A stretch of 64,000 bases of DNA, from NCBI GenBank assembly GCA_029856045.1, contig JAHQWG010000012.1, forward strand, positions 1 to 64,000, in the 5' to 3' direction. A program made the position numbers and the translations under genes. Below the pieces are notes generated by a model. That model searched no databases. It had not been told where the DNA came from and saw nothing but the letters and a program-made list of their open reading frames with translations. Below are positions 5,345 through 31,953 of the stretch, piece after piece. How positions within the stretch are numbered: position 1 is the stretch's first letter; every line of letters begins with the position of its first letter. The stretch is from Promethearchaeia archaeon (GTDB lineage: Archaea > Asgardarchaeota > Lokiarchaeia > Sigyniarchaeales > SOKP01).

Positions 5345-6226
5345 TTATTCATCTTTCTTATCTTCTTTAATCATTCTGAGAAAATCTATAAAGGCATTTT
5401 TTTCTTTAGATAATTCCTTTTCTAAAAATTCTTTTATCTCTTCAGATAAAATTATTGCGTTTTTTAGATCGTATTTAAAAAAATAAAATATATTTTTATC
5501 AGATAATTTTCTTTTTGAAATTTTTTTCTTAATTTGTTTAGTTTTATTAGGATCATTTAATATTAAGATATGGTCTTTTCCAATTTTTGAGGCTGATATT
5601 AATGCAAGCCAATGATAAGATGAATTAATTGCAATACAATGATTGGGAGCTTTCTCAATATGATTTTTGATAGCTTGATATTTTAAGGTAAATCTTTCGC
5701 GATTTATGTCTTTCAAATCTTCATTTGTAAAATAAAAAAATCCACTCAAATCACTTAATTCTTGAGAGATATACTTTCCACCAAATAGACTAAAGAGAAT
5801 CCTTAATTCATAATCATGTTTTATTGAATAGAGGTGATTCCTAATAATGAAAGGATTTACTAAACCTGTTTTAAAATAAGAATCTAGTGTGTGTGTTTTC
5901 AGTTCACTATTTAAAATAAAATCCGTGTCTTTCTTTTTTTTAAGTTCAGATTTAATGAGTATTTTAGAATTTTCAAGTAATTCAGGGATTTCTTTTGATA
6001 AATGTTCGCTTAATTTATTATTTGCGAGTGATTTTAGAAGGAAATATTCAAGTACATACGACCATCGAAATTCTTTTTTGTTATATTTGAGATCTAATAC
6101 CAGAAATTTCATTTTTTTGAAAAATCCTTCTAAAAATTCTTTTATAGTAATATTTTTTTCAGGATTAATCAACATTAGAAAAGTGGATAATCCACAACTA
6201 TTAGGTAATTGAGAATAAAGGGGCAA
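5345..6226 (-). CDS. Hypothetical protein with papain-like (C39-like) catalytic motifs
   Basis: N-terminal QLPNSCG, later YHW and LNDP (Cys-His-Asp). Confidence 0.5.
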   Translation of the reverse strand: MPLYSQLPNSCGLSTFLMLINPEKNITIKEFLEGFFKKMKFLVLDLKYNKKEFRWSYVLEYFLLKSLANNKLSEHLSKEIPELLENSKILIKSELKKKKDTDFILNSELKTHTLDSYFKTGLVNPFIIRNHLYSIKHDYELRILFSLFGGKYISQELSDLSGFFYFTNEDLKDINRERFTLKYQAIKNHIEKAPNHCIAINSSYHWLALISASKIGKDHILILNDPNKTKQIKKKISKRKLSDKNIFYFFKYDLKNAIILSEEIKEFLEKELSKEKNAFIDFLRMIKEDKKDE

Positions 6227-6446
6227 TTTATGTGACAGGATAAAAACCTCGAGTTTTCAATATTAAAAATTTAAAAAATGTTTAATTAATATTTTATAAA
6301 ATGATATATATTTCGAATTTGAAAATCTTGATAGCAAAATGAAGAAATTTCCATTATTTGAATGTGAGTAAAAAAAATTAAGAAAAACTTCCTATATTTA
6401 ATAATAGAAAATAAAAAAAGAAAATTAATTAAACCATATAACACAA

Positions 6447-6546
6447 GCAGAAGTAGTCTAGTGGTAAGGCGCCGGCCTCGAGATTCTTAGAATCAGGAGA
6501 GCCGGTGTGTGTTTCACACGCGGGGGTTCAATTCCCTCCTTCTGCG
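6447..6546 (+). tRNA. tRNA-Ser(CGA) with 17-nt intron at 37/38 (6483..6499)
   Basis: Acceptor GCAGAAG/CTTCTGC plus G73; D-loop AGTGGTA; anticodon stem CCGGC/GCCGG with CGA at 6479-6481; long variable arm TGTGTG-TTT-CACACG; T-loop TTCAATT. No encoded CCA. Confidence 0.9.
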
Positions 6547-6586
6547 CATTTTGTGATCATATTTTAGTAATAAAGGTCTGATTATC

Positions 6587-20754: not shown

Positions 20755-21279
20755 TTGACAAATTATAAAGCAAAAGTAATAATGGCTGGTTCTTATCGGG
20801 TTGGAAAAACATCCCTAATTGTAAGATATTGTGATAACACTTTTTTAGAAGAATATATCCAAACTATTGGGGCAAATTTCTACATAAAAGAAATTGATCA
20901 GAAGGTTTTTACAAATTCAAATATTAATTTAACGCTTTTTTTATGGGATATATGCGGACAGATTGATAAATTATTTGTTACTGAGTATTATTTTCAAGGT
21001 GCGGCGGCAGCTATCATTGTTTTTGATTTAACTAATGAACAAAGTTTTAAAGATTTAGATTTTTGGATTAAGAAAATAAGAGATCTCTCGGGAGATATTC
21101 CATTTATAATAGTAGGAAATAAAATAGACCTAGAGAATGAGAGAAAAATTTCTAAAGATATTGGAATAAAAAAGTCAGCTGATTATAATGTAAATTATAT
21201 TGAAACTTCTGCCAAGAAGGATATTAATGTTAACATAATTTTTAATGATATTTCGAAAATGATTATAGCAAGAGTATAG
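20755..21279 (+). CDS. Rab-like small GTPase
   Basis: GSYRVGKT, TIGANF, WDICGQ, YFQGA, GNKID, ETSAK. No C-terminal Cys. Confidence 0.9.
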   Translation: MTNYKAKVIMAGSYRVGKTSLIVRYCDNTFLEEYIQTIGANFYIKEIDQKVFTNSNINLTLFLWDICGQIDKLFVTEYYFQGAAAAIIVFDLTNEQSFKDLDFWIKKIRDLSGDIPFIIVGNKIDLENERKISKDIGIKKSADYNVNYIETSAKKDINVNIIFNDISKMIIARV

Positions 21280-23276: not shown

Positions 23277-24596
23277 TTACTTTTCACCCTTAATTGGATT
23301 AATAATTTTTTTATTATTCATATATTTTTGTAAGACTTTTGGGATATTTATAGAATTATCCTCATTTTGATAATTTTCCAATATACAACATATAGTTCTT
23401 TCTGTCGCTATTGCAGTAGAATTTAATGTATGGATTATTTTATATCCTTTAGGATCACCTAGCTTCCCAAATCGAATATTTAATTTTCTTGCTTGATAAT
23501 CCAAACAATTGCTACATGACCCTAGTTCTCTATATGCATTTGAAGCGGGAAACCATCCTTCAAGGTCGTATTTTTTTGCAGCGTTATCATTCATTTCTCC
23601 AGAAGCAATATTTACAATTCTATATGGAATTTCTAGTTGTTTGAAAAGATCTTCAGTATTTTTGTTTAATTCCTCATGATAATTCCAAGAATCTTCGGGT
23701 TTGCAAAGTATAAATTGTTCAATTTTTTCAAATTGATGGACGCGAAAAATTCCTAATGTATCCTTACCATGAGCTCCAGCTTCCCTTCTAAAACATGTAG
23801 AGATTCCGGCATATTTTAAAGGTAATTGATTATTATGAATTACTTCATTTTGATGATATGCAGCAAGCGTTTGTTCAGCTGTAGCAATCATATATAAGTC
23901 TTGATCCTGAATCTTATATAATTGTTCTTCAAAATCAGCAAGTTCTGATGCTGCTTTAATTGAATTATATTTGATGAAAAATGGGGTCCATAATGGGATA
24001 AAACCTTTTGAAATTAAGAAAGCTAAAGCAAATTGCATTAATGCAAGATTCATTACAGCTATATCATTTTTTAGGAAATAAAATCTGGAACCAGAAATTT
24101 TAGATGCCCTTTTAATATCTGCACCATCAATAAGTTCAATTAAATTAACATGCGAAAGCGGATTAAATGAGAAATTTGGTAAATCACCAACAACTCTGAC
24201 CAATTCGTTTGAATCTTCATTCTCCCCTACAGGAACACTTTCATCAATTAAATTTCCAACTTTATAACGATACTCTTCTCGTTTTTCTAATAATTTATTA
24301 ACTTCATTTTCAATACTTAGAATTAAATTTCCAATTTCTTTTGAATTCTGAATAGTTGGTTCGATCTCTTCTGGGGATTTTTGGGCTAGCTTCATTGCAG
24401 ATATATCCTGAGAGAAGATATTTCTTTGACGTCTTAATTCGTTTAATTGTTGTAATTTTTTTCTATAAGTTGTATCATACTCGATAACTTTATCAACTAC
24501 ATTCGTATTTTTAAAGCGTTTTTTCTCGGATTCATATATCAAATCAATGTTTTTACGAAATTTCTCAATATCAAGCATTTTTTGTAATTGACCCAA
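23277..24596 (-). CDS. serS: Serine--tRNA ligase
   Basis: MLDI, ATAEQ, CFRREAGAHGKDTLGIFRVHQFEKIEQF, ELGSCSNC, HTLNST. Confidence 0.95.
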   Translation of the reverse strand: MGQLQKMLDIEKFRKNIDLIYESEKKRFKNTNVVDKVIEYDTTYRKKLQQLNELRRQRNIFSQDISAMKLAQKSPEEIEPTIQNSKEIGNLILSIENEVNKLLEKREEYRYKVGNLIDESVPVGENEDSNELVRVVGDLPNFSFNPLSHVNLIELIDGADIKRASKISGSRFYFLKNDIAVMNLALMQFALAFLISKGFIPLWTPFFIKYNSIKAASELADFEEQLYKIQDQDLYMIATAEQTLAAYHQNEVIHNNQLPLKYAGISTCFRREAGAHGKDTLGIFRVHQFEKIEQFILCKPEDSWNYHEELNKNTEDLFKQLEIPYRIVNIASGEMNDNAAKKYDLEGWFPASNAYRELGSCSNCLDYQARKLNIRFGKLGDPKGYKIIHTLNSTAIATERTICCILENYQNEDNSINIPKVLQKYMNNKKIINPIKGEK

Positions 24597-25103: not shown

Positions 25104-27077
25104 ATGGAACAAGTTAGCATTGGAGTTTATGTTTGTGAGTGAGGGGTAAATATAGGGGGTTACGTAGATTGTGAAGCATTAAGAGACTTTGCAGAAACAC
25201 TACCAAATGTTACAGTGTCTAAAGTAAATAAATTTACATGTTCAGATCCAGGTCAAAAAATAATTAAAAATGATATTCAAGAGTTGGACTTAAAAAGAGT
25301 AGTAGTGGCGTCATGAACACCAAAAATTCACGAACCTACATACAAATCATTGTGTGCTGAGTCCGGATTAAATCCAAATTATTTTCAAATGGTAAATATA
25401 AGAGAACATTGTTCTTTTGTACATCAAGATAACAAAGAAAAAGCGACTCAAAAAGCAAAAAATTTAATTCGAGCAGGAGTAAATAGAGCACGTCTTTTAG
25501 AAACTGTGCCAATCAAAGAATTGAGCGTTGAAAAATCCGCGTTAGTTATAGGAGCTGGTATTGCTGGGATGAATGCTGCGTTAAATTTAGCAAATCATGG
25601 TATTAAGGTATATCTAGTTGAAAAAGAACCAACAATAGGCGGTAGAATGGCACAGTTAGATCGAATATTTCCAACAGATGATTGCGGAATATGAGTACTA
25701 GCACCAATTATGGTTAATGCATCAAAACATCCAAATATTGAATTAATGACATACTGTGAAGTTGTCGAATTTGGTGGATTCGCTGGCAATTATGAAATAA
25801 AAATTCTTAAAAAACCAAGATATGTTGATGAAAACAAATGTACGGGATGCGGTTTATGCACCACTAAATGTCCAATAGATGTGCCAGATGAATTTAATAG
25901 AGGAATTGGGCAGAGACATGCAATTTATATCCCATTTCCACAAGCAGTCCCGATTCTTGCTTTAATTGATAAAGAAGTATGCATTGACTGCAAACTTTGT
26001 GAAAAAGATTGTCCTGCTGAAGCAATTGATTATGAACAACAGCCAGAATATATCGATATTAAAGTGGGGGCTGTTATAATAGCAACTGGTTGGGATGAAT
26101 ATCCAATTATTGATAGTAATGAGTATGGTTATGGCATCTATCCGAATGTAATAACCCAAATAGAATTGGAAAGATTATTAAGTCCAATCGGTCCAACATA
26201 TGGTCATGTCCATAGAATTTCCGATTGTAAAACACCTAAAAATGTTGCTATGTTTCAGTGTGTTGGATCACGGAATTTAAAAGCTAATATATATTGTTCG
26301 GGTGTTTGTTGCATGGTTGCAATGAAAAATGCCCAACTTTTAAAACAAGAATATCCAGATATGGAAATCACAATTTTTTACATTGATATTAGAGCGACCG
26401 ATAAAGGGAATGAAGAGTATTATACCGCAGCGAGAAAAGCAGGAGTTAATTTCATAAAGAGTAATATTTCACGAGTGTATGAAGATCCGAAAACAAAAAA
26501 TTTGAAATTTTTGGTGCAAGATTCTTTAAGAGAATCATTGGGCATTCAAGAGAAGGAATATGATTTAATTGTTTTATCTACTGGAATCAATCCATCAAAA
26601 GGAACAAAAGAAGCCATTGCAGTATTGGGATTAGACAAAGGACCAAATGGATTTTTATCAGAAATTCATGGATGTCTCGCACCTCAAGAGACCAATAAGC
26701 GGGGTATATATATTTGTGGTTGTGCTGCAGGTCCAAAAAATATTCCTTATTCCGTATCTACTGCCTTAGCAGCTGCGAGTAAAGCATCGGCCCTAGTATT
26801 ATCAGGCAGAATAAGACAAGAATTAATGATTCCGGAAGTTGATCAGAATTTATGTATGGGATGCCACCGGTGTGAAAAATCATGTTTCTATCACGCTATT
26901 AAAGTAAATGAAGATGGTGTAGCCGAAGTTGATGAATTAAATTGTAAAGGATGTGGATTGTGTGTAACAGTCTGTCCAGCTAATGCATTAGATCTAAAAT
27001 ATTATAGGAATAATCAATTTAGAAGTGAGATATATGGAATCTGTGGAAATAATTATTCTATGGAGGATACAGTTTAA
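25104..27077 (+). CDS. hdrA: Heterodisulfide reductase subunit A, selenoprotein with 3 UGA (Sec13, Sec71, Sec197); 657 aa
   Basis: ATG at 25104 after GGGGAG. In-frame TGA at 25140 (VYVCE-U-GVNI), 25314 (VVVAS-U-TPKIHE) and 25692 (DDCGI-U-VLAP). Track ORFs 25350 and 25710 are in the same frame. GAGIAG and QCVGSR..YCSGVCC motifs; ferredoxin motifs. Confidence 0.92.
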
Positions 27078-27115
27078 ATCTAAGTAAATAATAAAAAATG
27101 AGGGGTTTAAAAAAA

Positions 27116-27541
27116 ATGGAAAGTAAAATAATAAATCAAAATCCTAAAATTATAATGTTTGCTTGCGAAAAATGAGGCTATGCAGCTGCAGATTTAACCG
27201 GAACTTGTAGAAAACAATATTCATCTGATATCTATATAATAAGAGTGAAATGTACAGGACGTGTAAGTTTGGATATAATCATAGAATCACTTCTCAATGG
27301 GGCAGATGGAGTTGCAATAGTAGGTTGACATGAGCATGAGTGTGAGTTCGGAGATGGTAATATGAATACATATAAGCATATTAAATTTTTAAAAAAACTT
27401 TTCAAACATATCGGAATATCTGAAAATAGAGTTGAATATTATTTTGTATCTGCTGCAGAGGTGGAAAATTTTCTTAATGCTACTACTGATATAATAGATA
27501 AAATAACAAAATTGCCTCCTTTACCAAAAAAATCTGAATAG
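27116..27541 (+). CDS. mvhD: MvhD/VhuD [2Fe-2S] subunit, selenoprotein with 2 UGA (Sec20, Sec71); 141 aa
   Basis: FACEK-U-GYAAADLTG (TGA 27173), IRVKCTGRV, GADGVAIVG-U-HEHECEFGDGN (TGA 27326), VSAAE; TAG stop. Absent from the ORF track. Confidence 0.92.
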
Positions 27542-27581
27542 AATGACCTTCATAAAAAAATTTTAGTTATGAAGTGACTCT
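27540..27581 (+). promoter_or_regulatory. SECIS element, eukaryote/Loki-type
   Basis: ATGAC-[CTTCATAA]-AAAAATTTTAG-[TTATGAAG]-TGAC: AUGA/GA kink-turn core, perfect 8-bp upper stem, A-rich apical loop, weak lower pairing AGA/TCT. Confidence 0.85.
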
Positions 27582-27634
27582 CCTTGCAAGGGATCTCGGA
27601 TTATTTTATATATAAATATTTAATTTGAAGAAAA

Positions 27635-29089
27635 ATGAAAGTGCAAGAGAATATTAATAGGAATGTTTTAAATGATGCATTAAATGTTATGAAATCATAT
27701 AGATTTAGAAATCTAATTGATTCTAAGGAAGACATTTTAAATTCAAGAATATATTCAGAAGAGGAATATTACGATTTCATTTTTACATTGTACGATGAAG
27801 ACAAATTAAAATATTCTCTCTTTAATTTTTTAAAAAATAAAGAAATTGCTTTTATTAAAGATTTAAAAGAATTTGGTAAAGAATTTAATCATGATTTAAA
27901 AAAGATCTTGAGCTTATGTTATCTTTTAAAATATGAAAATTTAATTGAAATTAAAAAAAATGAAAATACTTCAGAATTAGAAATTAATATTAAAAATAAG
28001 GATTTTATTAAAGTTAAACCAATATATGAACCTGTCAAGGTTATATTTGATTCAAAAATATGTTCTGGTTGTGGAATTTGTCAAGGAATTTGTCCTGTTA
28101 ATTGTATAAAAATTGATAACGGCGTTGGTATTATTGATGATAAGAAATGTATTAGTTGCGGGTTATGTTATACAGTTTGTCCAAGGTCATACTTACCAAT
28201 AGACATTTTAAACATATATATCTCTAATTCAAATAAATTTAAAAATCAATCAGATATTGGAGAATATTTGGAAGCATATTCTGCAAAAACAAAAGTTGAT
28301 GAGATATCCAAAATTTGCCAAGATGGTGGAATTGTAAGTTCTATTTTATATTATTTATTTGATACCCAACAAATTGATGGTGCAATTGGGGCTGGTATGA
28401 GTGAAACAATTTGGAAGCCAACACCACTTTTAATTAAAAATAAAGATGATATTAAAAAAACCTCAGGTACAAAATATGCAAATAATCCTAATTTGCAATT
28501 ATTAAATCAGCATATAGATTGTGAAAACTTGGCTGTAGTTGGAACTCCATGCATGATGCAAGCATTACTAAAATCTCATATCTATAATTTTAAAACTCCT
28601 AACCTAGATAAGATAAAATATAGAATTGGAATTTTTTGTATGGAAAGCTTTCCATATGAAAGTATTTTAGAAATTGCAAAAAGATTATCTATAAAAATTA
28701 ATGATATAAAGAAAATGGACATAAACAAAGGAAAATTCTTTTTATATTCAAGAACTGGAGAGACTAAAAATATCCCAATTAAAGAAATAACTTCATTGGC
28801 TAGAGAAGATTGCGAATATTGTTATGATTTAACATCAGAGTCTGCTGATATTTCTATAGGCTCAATTGGGTCTCCAGCAGGGTGGTCGACTGTTTTAGTC
28901 AGAACAAAAGTTGGAAAGGAAATTTTTAAGGGATTAGTCGATAAAAATTATATCGAATGGAAAGATCTTCAAGATGTTCAGCCAGGTTTAAACTTATTAT
29001 TAAAAATTGCTAAGACGAAAAGAAAGAATTGTACTGAACACATTAATAAGGTAAAAATGGAGAAAGAGTATATTCCTCAATATTATTAA
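27635..29089 (+). CDS. F420 hydrogenase/dehydrogenase beta subunit (FrhB/FdhB family) with 2x[4Fe-4S] domain and about 130-aa N-terminal extension
   Basis: CSGCGICQGICP, CISCGLCYTVCP, QDGGIVS, GTKY, VGTPC, GIFCMESF, CEYCYD, ADISIGSIGSPAGW. Confidence 0.9.
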   Translation: MKVQENINRNVLNDALNVMKSYRFRNLIDSKEDILNSRIYSEEEYYDFIFTLYDEDKLKYSLFNFLKNKEIAFIKDLKEFGKEFNHDLKKILSLCYLLKYENLIEIKKNENTSELEINIKNKDFIKVKPIYEPVKVIFDSKICSGCGICQGICPVNCIKIDNGVGIIDDKKCISCGLCYTVCPRSYLPIDILNIYISNSNKFKNQSDIGEYLEAYSAKTKVDEISKICQDGGIVSSILYYLFDTQQIDGAIGAGMSETIWKPTPLLIKNKDDIKKTSGTKYANNPNLQLLNQHIDCENLAVVGTPCMMQALLKSHIYNFKTPNLDKIKYRIGIFCMESFPYESILEIAKRLSIKINDIKKMDINKGKFFLYSRTGETKNIPIKEITSLAREDCEYCYDLTSESADISIGSIGSPAGWSTVLVRTKVGKEIFKGLVDKNYIEWKDLQDVQPGLNLLLKIAKTKRKNCTEHINKVKMEKEYIPQYY

Positions 29090-29157: not shown

Positions 29158-31953
29158 TTACTGAAGTAATATCTCTTTATCACGATATATCATTCCAAGG
29201 AAAGAGACTAAATCCATTACTTTTAGTTTTAAATCTCTATTTTCTTGTAGATAGCAATTAAAATGAGTTAAACATTTTGGACACGTTACTATCAAAAATT
29301 CGGCACCTGTATCAATAGCTTCATTAATTCTTTGACCTTGCAGTAGTTTTGAATAATTACTGCAAGAGATAAAGGCAGAAACTCCACAACAATTTGCATC
29401 TTGCCTGTTATTTATCATTTCTATTAATTCAATATTTGGTAAATTATTTAATATATCACGGGGGGCATCATAAACATTACTCAATCTGCCAAGTCTGCAG
29501 GGATCGTGGTAAGTTATTTTAATTTTATCCTGATTAGATAATTTCAAATCATCTAATAATCTTTCTTTTTGTATGTATTCGCTAATGTGATATACTTCAA
29601 AATCATATTCATTATCATCTTTAAAAAAGTCTTTATATACATACTTCCACATATAGTAACCTTCAGCACAGCTGCATATTATGGTTTTTACTCCTGCATC
29701 TTTATATAATTTTACGTTATATTTTGCTAGCTTTTCGAAAGTATCAAGATCTCCAGTCCAATAACAATCATGTCCACAACATCTCTCATCAGCTAAAACC
29801 ACTGGAGTGATATTATTTAGGTTTAGAATACCAATAGTCGTTTTGGGAATATTAAGATAATCAATATTGTTATGGTAGAGTGGAAATTGACATGTTCCAT
29901 AGTAATGTTTTGGTTTTTGGGAATTATTAGATGAATCATCATTTTTTTTATAGGGGATATCACAGTTAGAACAACTATTACAATTTAAGCATCGATTTGC
30001 TTCTTGAATTGCAATTTCTTCGGTAAATTCTAGTTCAATTTCATTAAAAGTGCTACATCTTTCTTCTATAGGGATAATAGGCAGATCATTTCTCTCTTCG
30101 AATATAACTTCCTTCTTTGGGATTGGTGATGTTTTAAATTGCTCTCTTTTAAATCTGTTTTCTCCTATATCAATCCCTCTTAGATATCGATCAATAGAAA
30201 TTGCTGCTTCATATCCATTAGCTATTGCTCTAATTGCTATTCCTTGACCCTCTGTAACATCTCCTCCAGCAAAAACACCAAGGATATTTGTTTCTAAAGT
30301 AGAGTCATCGAATTGAATTTTTCCTCTTTTATTAATTATCAACTCATTTTGAGCTGCCTTTAGGAGAGAATAATCAGCTTCTTGACCTATTGCTAATATT
30401 AACACATCAAGTTGTATTTTAAATTCAGAGCCTTCGATTTGAATAGGTTTTCTCCTTCCTGAGGAATCTGGTTCGCCAAGTTTCATTCGGATACATTCTA
30501 CTTTGGAAACATTTCCTTTTTTATCTCCAATTATTCTTACGGGATTAGTTAAGAATTGAAAATCTATATTTTCTTCTTTTGCCATTTCAATTTCCTCTTC
30601 TGCTGCAGGCATTTCTTTTTCCGAACGTCTATAAATAACAATTACTTTTTTTGCACCTAACCTTACGGCCGTTCTTGCTGAGTCCATAGCAACATTTCCA
30701 CCACCCGTTACTCCAATAATTTTATCTTTAATTATGATAGGAGATTTTTTAGATTCTTGATCTGTAGGTCTGAGATATTTGAGAAATTCTATTCCTCCTA
30801 TAACATTATTCAATTCTTCACCTTCGAGTCTCATACTTCGGCTACTCTGGAGTCCTATTGATATAAAAATCGCTTTATAACCCATATTTGTTAACTTCTT
30901 GAATGTCAAATCTGGTCCTATTGGAGTATTTGTTTTTATCTCAACGCCACTTTTTTCTATGAATTCAATTTCATAATCCAAAATATCATCAGGTAATCTA
31001 TATTCTGGGATTCCAACTCTCAACATACCTCCTTTAAAGGGGCTGGCTTCAAATATTGTTGGTTTGTATCCTTTCTTTGCGAGGAAATATGCTGCTGTTA
31101 AGCCAGCGGGTCCCGAACCAATAATAGCAACTTGTTCGTTTGTTTGTTCAAATGGTTGTAATTGACTTAAGGGTTGGTTTTTTATTTCCCAATCAGCAAC
31201 AAATCTTTTTAATGCCCTGATGGCAATTGGCTTATCTATAGTATTGCGATTACAACTTAATTCACATGGATGTGTACAAATTCGTCCACATACACCTGGA
31301 AGGGGATTTCTTTCCCGTATTAAATTGAGAGATTCTTGAAATTTTCCTTCTTTAATTAATGTAATATAACCTTGAACATCAATATTTGCAGGACAAGCTT
31401 GTGTGCACGGTGATATTCCATTCATAAATGGCAAGCAACCTATAAAATATGCTATTTCTCCTTTTCTAGCAATCTTTAAATCTGTATTGTCTAAAAAGCC
31501 AATTTTATTTACTAATTCTATTTGATCATTAGCCATTAAATACGGTAAATTTGAATATAATCGACCATGAGTTGTACATTGAAGCTTTTCCTCTTGAAAT
31601 GAGTCATTTTCTGTAGCAATATTTCGAAGTTTCAAAATAATATCGAGAAAATTAACACCAACGTTATCTTTAGACATTGGACAGTATTCTGAACAAAGTC
31701 CACAAGTTAAACAACTCCAAATATTTGAATTATTAATTGCCACTTCAACTGAGTAAGTAGAAAAATCTCTAACTAATTGCCTTGGATAAAACAATCCAAA
31801 TGGAGAGAGGGGGCATATATTAATACAACGATTACAATCATAACAATAGTAAGAGGATTTTAACAACTCAGACATTTTTTCAATACCTTTATGTTCAATA
31901 TTTAAACTCGTTCCTATTGAAGTTTTACTTTTAGTTTTCATTTTAAAAATCAT
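29158..31953 (-). CDS. HdrD-like protein (HdrC-like Fe-S + 2 CCG domains) with inserted GltD/NfnB-like FAD/NAD(P) module
   Basis: CYDCNRCINICP, CLTCGLCSEYCP, YFIGC | PCTQACP, CGRICTHPCE, GSGPAG, GGGNVAMD, YRR, EANRCLNC | ERCCG, CAEG, YHDPCRLGR, CCG, TCPKC. Confidence 0.85.
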   Translation of the reverse strand: MIFKMKTKSKTSIGTSLNIEHKGIEKMSELLKSSYYCYDCNRCINICPLSPFGLFYPRQLVRDFSTYSVEVAINNSNIWSCLTCGLCSEYCPMSKDNVGVNFLDIILKLRNIATENDSFQEEKLQCTTHGRLYSNLPYLMANDQIELVNKIGFLDNTDLKIARKGEIAYFIGCLPFMNGISPCTQACPANIDVQGYITLIKEGKFQESLNLIRERNPLPGVCGRICTHPCELSCNRNTIDKPIAIRALKRFVADWEIKNQPLSQLQPFEQTNEQVAIIGSGPAGLTAAYFLAKKGYKPTIFEASPFKGGMLRVGIPEYRLPDDILDYEIEFIEKSGVEIKTNTPIGPDLTFKKLTNMGYKAIFISIGLQSSRSMRLEGEELNNVIGGIEFLKYLRPTDQESKKSPIIIKDKIIGVTGGGNVAMDSARTAVRLGAKKVIVIYRRSEKEMPAAEEEIEMAKEENIDFQFLTNPVRIIGDKKGNVSKVECIRMKLGEPDSSGRRKPIQIEGSEFKIQLDVLILAIGQEADYSLLKAAQNELIINKRGKIQFDDSTLETNILGVFAGGDVTEGQGIAIRAIANGYEAAISIDRYLRGIDIGENRFKREQFKTSPIPKKEVIFEERNDLPIIPIEERCSTFNEIELEFTEEIAIQEANRCLNCNSCSNCDIPYKKNDDSSNNSQKPKHYYGTCQFPLYHNNIDYLNIPKTTIGILNLNNITPVVLADERCCGHDCYWTGDLDTFEKLAKYNVKLYKDAGVKTIICSCAEGYYMWKYVYKDFFKDDNEYDFEVYHISEYIQKERLLDDLKLSNQDKIKITYHDPCRLGRLSNVYDAPRDILNNLPNIELIEMINNRQDANCCGVSAFISCSNYSKLLQGQRINEAIDTGAEFLIVTCPKCLTHFNCYLQENRDLKLKVMDLVSFLGMIYRDKEILLQ

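Follow-up and report, generated by a model that had tools for sequence, protein, structure and literature searches.

An Asgard archaeal hdrA gene with three in-frame UGA codons, very probably read as selenocysteine through a SECIS element shared with vhuD

Introduction

The DNA analysed here, a stretch of 64,000 nucleotides that we call the window, contains a gene for a HdrA-type bifurcating flavoprotein whose reading frame is crossed by three UGA codons. This raises the question of how these codons are read: as stops in a broken gene, or as an amino acid, and if so which one. The window lies on contig C15 of a metagenome-assembled genome (MAG) of a Promethearchaeota (Asgard) archaeon, which comprises 3.34 Mb in 55 contigs, has 29.4% GC and is estimated to be 100% complete.

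There is a precedent for such a gene. Lokiarchaeota encode HdrA proteins with several selenocysteines (Sec), vhuD always lies directly downstream and one lokiSECIS element after vhuD is shared by both genes (Mariotti et al. 2016, PMC4989117). As many as six UGAs, spread over some 2 kb, depend on that element, and the stop codon of HdrA is always UAA or UAG (PMC4989117). A survey in 2024 extended the multi-Sec HdrA-VhuD arrangement to Asgard archaea (PMC11227280). Multi-Sec HdrA with a shared SECIS is therefore already published, and the present gene is a further example of it. We put the probability that UGA codons 13, 71 and 197 of hdrA are read as Sec via one shared SECIS after vhuD at about 0.92.

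Results

When TGA is read through, hdrA (25104-27077, forward strand) translates as a single frame of 657 codons followed by TAA. Exactly three codons differ from translation with table 11, and these are TGA at codons 13 (25140-25142), 71 (25314-25316) and 197 (25692-25694). An earlier note on this DNA had described one frame from ATG 25104 to TAA 27077 through these three codons, and the translation reproduced it exactly. The two fragments that it had seen on the gene track are the ORFs of 114 and 455 amino acids into which table 11 splits the frame, the longer starting at 25710. With U written for TGA, the local motifs are V-C-E-U-G (C-x-U-G), A-S-U-T-P and D-C-G-I-U (D-C-x-x-U, the canonical HdrA Sec position), in agreement with the CxC-G, A-C-S/T-P and DCxxC sites named beforehand. 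Chance does not explain this frame, because a genome of 29% GC closes random frames fast, all three stops are TGA on Cys columns, and the match to HdrA is full length.

The identity of the protein was clear. Residues 1-646 align with residues 1-649 of HdrA from Methanothermococcus thermolithotrophicus (5ODC chain A, E 4.8e-221). The alignment is gapless through residue 390, so the numbering is common to both proteins at all three UGA sites. The counterparts in the solved structure are Cys13 (V-C-H-C-G), Cys71 (A-A-C-S-P) and Cys197 (D-C-S-I-C). In the HdrA of M. maripaludis (9SFI chain A), the residue aligned with codon 197 is X, and position 197 of that protein is a known selenocysteine (PMC13518236). 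The claim that the DCxxU site is the Sec position of methanococcal HdrA is thus borne out. Pfam found four 4Fe-4S ferredoxin (Fer4) stretches and an FAD/pyridine-nucleotide fold at residues 146-187. Similarity to HdrA is colinear over the whole length, through the N-terminal, TrxR-like FAD, inserted and C-terminal ferredoxin domains. The Cys sets are complete: the N-terminal set 11/13/46/71, the pair 194/197, the cluster Cys 386/398/402/403 and four CxxCxxCxxxC motifs. All of these conserved positions hold Cys except for the TGA at 13, 71 and 197. The other motifs had been said to be intact, and every ferredoxin, FAD and HA4-type Cys motif is indeed present. The gene is a real, intact hdrA of an Asgard archaeon.

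The pairing of TGA with Cys was then followed across relatives. The census of HdrA genes from the same order took in 24 orthologous loci, 6 other copies of this genome and another 20 paralogues, and came to 49 sequences once a partial locus had been excluded. Columns 13, 71 and 197 hold nothing but Cys or TGA in these 49 genes. Together with the alignment to Cys13, Cys71 and Cys197 of the M. thermolithotrophicus protein, this upholds the proposal that the TGAs replace conserved HdrA cysteines. The sample was picked for varied TGA counts, and its column and switch figures are descriptive only: column 197 has TGA in 46 of 49 sequences and Cys in 3, column 13 has TGA in 36 of 48 filled rows and Cys in 12, and column 71 has TGA in 17 of 49 and Cys in 32, while on a quick tree the minimum number of Cys/Sec switches is at least 8 for column 71, 5 for column 13 and 1 for column 197. 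TGA was absent from Cys11 and Cys194 in all 49 sequences. It was found at further Cys columns, namely 46 (four sequences), 296 and 402 (two each), and 403, 246, 594 and 620 (one each). The census as a whole places Sec in ten Cys columns and two insertion columns, and several of the occasional columns are ferredoxin-type cluster ligands. Four of the genes (L056, L059, L066 and the copy of this genome at C44:57200-59113) carry TGA at bona fide [4Fe-4S] ligand Cys, either in the CxxCxxCxxxC motifs (246, 296, 594, 620) or in the CC pair 402/403. One HdrA paralogue has five TGAs in a single gene.

This genome has four Sec-type hdrA-vhuD pairs, each with TGA at 13, 71 and 197 and one of them also at 296, and three Cys-type pairs that lack TGA. 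Within the orthologue group of the window's gene, TGA at column 71 is confined to its own genus and one other genome. All three TGAs are retained in each of the three orthologues from the same genus whose gene is complete. Compared with the hdrA genes of its genus, that of the window shows 36 synonymous codon differences and 16 or 27 nonsynonymous ones, which indicates purifying selection on the sequence.

These data bear on whether three nonsense mutations have turned hdrA into a decaying pseudogene, or whether it yields the 455-residue fragment (ATG 25710) only. Table 11 does break the frame into pieces, and nonsense changes do occur among close relatives: two same-genus MAGs have an extra in-frame TGA away from Cys, at Leu160 in L024 (TTA to TGA) and at Gly column 88 in L026. 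The TGAs of the window, however, all lie on invariant Cys columns, and they recur in three MAGs of the same genus, in three paralogues within this genome and in many genera. Substitutions are chiefly synonymous, and the N-terminal 196 residues are 59% identical to the solved HdrA and give a confident structural model. A pseudogene or fragment is therefore extremely unlikely, and the earlier view that the gene is no pseudogene stands, given its intact motifs and the purifying selection among close relatives. The extra TGAs of L024 and L026 may reflect errors, nonsense mutations or Sec insertion that is tolerated; the last is conceivable since a SECIS would recode any UGA of its mRNA. Errors of assembly or sequencing at TGT or TGC codons are hardly credible as the source of the three TGAs in hdrA. 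The genome is a metagenome bin of 55 contigs in which single-base errors are conceivable, but L024 and L025, which were assembled independently, have the same three TGAs, as do three paralogues within this genome.

Directly downstream of hdrA, 38 nt 3' of its stop, is vhuD/mvhD (FlpD family; PF02662, E 2.4e-39). It occupies 27116-27541 on the forward strand, with 141 codons (147 if counted from ATG 27098) and the stop codon TAG. Two in-frame UGAs, at 27173-27175 and 27326-27328, interrupt it. The protein aligns with MvhD and VhuD chains, and both TGAs coincide with the two residues given as X in M. maripaludis VhuD (9SFI_K). VhuD U20 aligns with MvhD Cys16 and U71 aligns with Cys67, which adjoins His68.

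An FrhB/FdhB-like subunit with a ferredoxin domain follows at 27635-29089 on the forward strand (PF04432, E 1.6e-43; PF04422, E 8e-19; stop TAA) and is a possible electron-input partner. Beyond it, at 29158-31953, is a divergent fusion of 931 amino acids with ferredoxin, GltD-like and CCG domains. Both the FrhB-like protein and this fusion are possible partners of the Sec-HdrA/VhuD module. These genes are the neighbours of hdrA, and no hdrBC lies beside it. McrA was absent in a search of the genome. Since hdrBC does not adjoin the gene and McrA is missing, the protein is a member of the HdrA family that probably does not have the methanogenic enzyme function. The complex is probably non-methanogenic and not a CoM-S-S-CoB reductase; a function in the HdrBC/CoM-S-S-CoB reaction is unlikely. 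Elsewhere in the window, a seryl-tRNA synthetase gene (23277-24596, reverse strand) lies directly upstream of hdrA-vhuD on the opposite strand, and a Ras-family small GTPase, typical of Asgard genomes, is encoded nearby at 20755-21279 (forward strand). A 100-nt tRNA match at 6447-6546 (Rfam, 50 bits), which ARAGORN did not call, is probably an intron-containing archaeal tRNA.

A predicted lokiSECIS follows vhuD at 27529-27603 on the forward strand. Its AUGA (27543-27546) begins 2 bases after the vhuD TAG stop. After a C.U position, a helix of 8 pairs joins 27548-27555 with 27567-27574 and is closed by the 11-nt apical loop AAAAAUUUUAG (27556-27566). The GA (27576-27577) stands within a U-GA 3' of the stem. 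Two further helices complete the structure: a 3' side hairpin at 27581-27593, whose loop surrounds GCA, and a lower stem that pairs 27531-27537 with 27596-27602 and takes its 5' strand from the last vhuD codons. The features described in 2016 are an AUGA before a 9-position stem, an 11-nt loop with A's first and AG last, a GA or AA after the stem, and a position just past the coding sequence (PMC4989117). The element of the window shows every one of them.

Covariation across 18 orthologous loci supports this structure. Each of the three helices covaries, 90% of cells are paired, and 14 of the 19 pairs show changes on both sides. None of 500 shuffles scored as high, and no slid register came close. 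The fold energy is not distinguishable from that of shuffles (z = -0.59). Because shuffles are equally stable, the support for the element comes from motif and covariation. No Rfam family matches it at the gathering threshold.

A regular-expression scan for SECIS-like hairpins was too unspecific, with 34 matches against 18-20 in shuffled genomes, and a covariance model was used instead. The model was built on the 18-locus structure and applied to 150 of 5622 first-look candidates from the whole 3.34 Mb. Among the candidates scored, it matched five places, all after selenoprotein genes: four follow the Sec-type hdrA-vhuD pairs and one follows vhuU. The element of the window was the best match in the genome (model R1, 72.4 bits). 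The three Cys-type pairs, which lack TGA, have no SECIS among these scored candidates either. No match was obtained within 25104-27115, that is, in or just after hdrA, and the SECIS core is 2,403 nt downstream of the first hdrA UGA. In the window hdrA terminates with TAA, and across the 24 loci its stop codon is always TAA or TAG. The SECIS at C35:57324-57401 (reverse strand) stands after a vhuU-like peptide with D-C-U-L-S-C, which is itself downstream of a gene for a [NiFe]-hydrogenase large subunit. The AUGA motif of this SECIS provides the UGA at which that peptide terminates, an overlap also described for Loki VhuU.1.

Sec insertion requires dedicated factors, and the genome was searched for them as the earlier note had advised. 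ARAGORN and Rfam identified a tRNA-Sec with anticodon TCA on contig C1 (2268-2356; 61 bits, over the Rfam cut-off). Beside it is SepSecS (885-2039; 387 bits), and EFSec/SelB lies at 5689-6582 (268 bits), so that these three are grouped within 6 kb (C1:885-6582). SelD, with an in-frame TGA of its own, is on C44 (185 bits). A PSTK-like gene on C20 scores 147 bits, under the curated NCBIfam cut-off of 290.5. The search thus found tRNA-Sec, SepSecS, EFSec and SelD, and for PSTK a match below its cut-off.

Another amino acid could in principle be inserted at these codons: UGA might be decoded as Cys, Trp or Gly through a changed code or near-cognate suppression. Read-through with Cys or Trp occurs under selenium scarcity, which counts in favour of such decoding. 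Against it, TGA closes 260 of the 2121 long ORFs of the whole genome, so there is no global recoding and TGA is an ordinary stop here. In-frame TGAs are confined to known selenoprotein families with a SECIS downstream of each, and the tRNA-Sec with its TCA anticodon and the dedicated factors are encoded. We consider decoding as anything other than Sec to be very unlikely.

With the hdrA frame, the Cys/Sec pairing, the structure and genome-wide specificity of the SECIS and the Sec machinery established, the decoding may be pictured as follows. From sequence and by analogy with published precedent, we infer that hdrA and vhuD are co-transcribed and that Sec is inserted. The two genes would form a selenoprotein unit on what is probably a single mRNA, ending at or just 3' of the SECIS. 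Through the eukaryote-like lokiSECIS, the Sec-specific elongation factor would be brought in together with Sec-tRNA(Sec). The five in-frame UGAs would all be read as Sec, two of them in vhuD and three in hdrA, as far as 2.4 kb upstream. UAA and UAG would terminate HdrA and VhuD, respectively. HdrA would then be made at full length and would carry Sec where the solved protein has Cys13, Cys71 and Cys197. If this element works on any UGA from a distance, one base change from TGT or TGC to TGA suffices to turn any Cys into Sec, which would explain why Sec number and position vary among paralogues.

Discussion

The gene described here agrees with the Lokiarchaeota pairs of 2016 (PMC4989117) in having several HdrA Sec codons, the canonical position near 200 among them, all on conserved Cys. 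It also shares with them a two-Sec VhuD directly downstream on the same strand and a HdrA stop of UAA. In both cases vhuD is followed by one SECIS only, built from AUGA, a stem of 9 positions, an A-rich loop of 11 nt whose last bases are AG, and GA. It differs from that set in coming from another genus and MAG. Where five possible Sec positions were reported in 2016 (PMC4989117), relatives of the present gene use ten Cys columns and two insertion columns. The SECIS of the window sits inside a lower stem and has a 3' side hairpin, whereas the main text of 2016 is without these.

Methanococcal HdrA(u)/VhuD (M. maripaludis 9SFI) has the same domain order, about 55-59% identity, Sec197 in D-C-x-x-U and the same two VhuD Sec positions; M. 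thermolithotrophicus HdrA (5ODC) is a Cys form. In contrast to the three Sec codons found here, methanococcal HdrA has one, and the methanococcal genes use an archaeal-type SECIS while the window uses a lokiSECIS. Unlike methanococci, the present host lacks McrA, and the electron acceptor is not expected to be CoM-S-S-CoB. The enzyme would then serve a non-methanogenic bifurcating complex. The lokiSECIS also resembles eukaryotic SECIS elements, including that of the multi-Sec selenoprotein P, in its AUGA...GA kink-turn core, in the unpaired A's of its apical loop and in acting at a distance on several UGAs. It differs from them in having a shorter upper stem and in serving two cistrons. SBP2 is not known from these archaea (PMC4989117).

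What the Sec residues might do can be approached through solved structures. In a crystal structure, the ligands of the N-terminal cluster are Cys of the N-terminal domain and, contributed by the partner subunit, Cys197 (Chadwick et al. 2022, PMC9012536). By cryo-EM, Sec197 and a neighbouring Cys appear in selenosulfide-like density (PMC13518236), and the equivalent Cys202/Cys205 pair holds an unknown ligand between the MvhD [2Fe-2S] cluster and FAD (PMC13580544). The same work names MvhD Cys16 as a further conserved, additional Cys (PMC13580544).

The earlier note had placed its two N-terminal sites on Cys of the N-terminal Fe-S domain, which is where positions 13 and 71 lie, and had proposed Se-ligated clusters. 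By analogy with these structures, such ligation is plausible for residues 71 and 197 and doubtful for 13. The likeliest cluster ligands are residues 11, 46, 71 and 197' (of the partner subunit), because of the MvhD analogy and because Cys103 is not invariant among the 49 census sequences. By the same analogy, a relay function close to the cluster is likelier for residue 13 than ligation. The predicted model of the HdrA N-terminal domain has a pLDDT of 86.7, and its best non-HdrA matches are MvhD chains (TM about 0.49, probability 0.98-1.0). When this domain was compared with VhuD, hhalign gave a weak match (E 0.041, probability 1.3%) that places HdrA 71 on the second VhuD Sec, and BLASTP gave no significant match (E 4.3).

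We place the Sec residues, as a proposal, at the mobile gate of the bifurcating enzyme that leads from the N-terminal domain and VhuD to the flavin. A more tentative idea, which we regard as possible but rather unlikely, is that the three HdrA Sec and the two VhuD Sec mark one site, a moving gate through which the bifurcating flavin is fed and drained. U197 may bind the unknown ligand or form a Se-S bond beside the FAD, as well as ligating the partner's N-terminal cluster as in the crystal. The N-terminal domain, on the strength of its model, may have an MvhD-like fold in which U13 and U71 occupy the topological places of the two VhuD Sec. If this is true, Cys-to-Sec swaps mark those Cys that do chemistry, by ligand exchange or as a selenosulfide relay, and not those that bind a cluster statically; residues 71 and 197' would supply selenolate ligands to a [4Fe-4S] 'shuttle' cluster.

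To what was published, this analysis adds Sec in more than five columns, repeated Cys/Sec toggling at column 71 and a SECIS set in a three-helix junction. The locus is a clean, documented case of a very unusual decoding, in which one SECIS would serve five UGAs in two cistrons over 2.4 kb, and the near-complete genome allows all parts of the Sec system to be listed. Among the columns, Sec is most frequent at 197, followed by 13, 71 and 46; it never takes the place of Cys11 or Cys194. This family-wide pattern of Cys-to-Sec replacement bears on how electrons pass between the mobile Fe-S arm and the bifurcating FAD, a question raised by the cryo-EM structures of 2025-2026.
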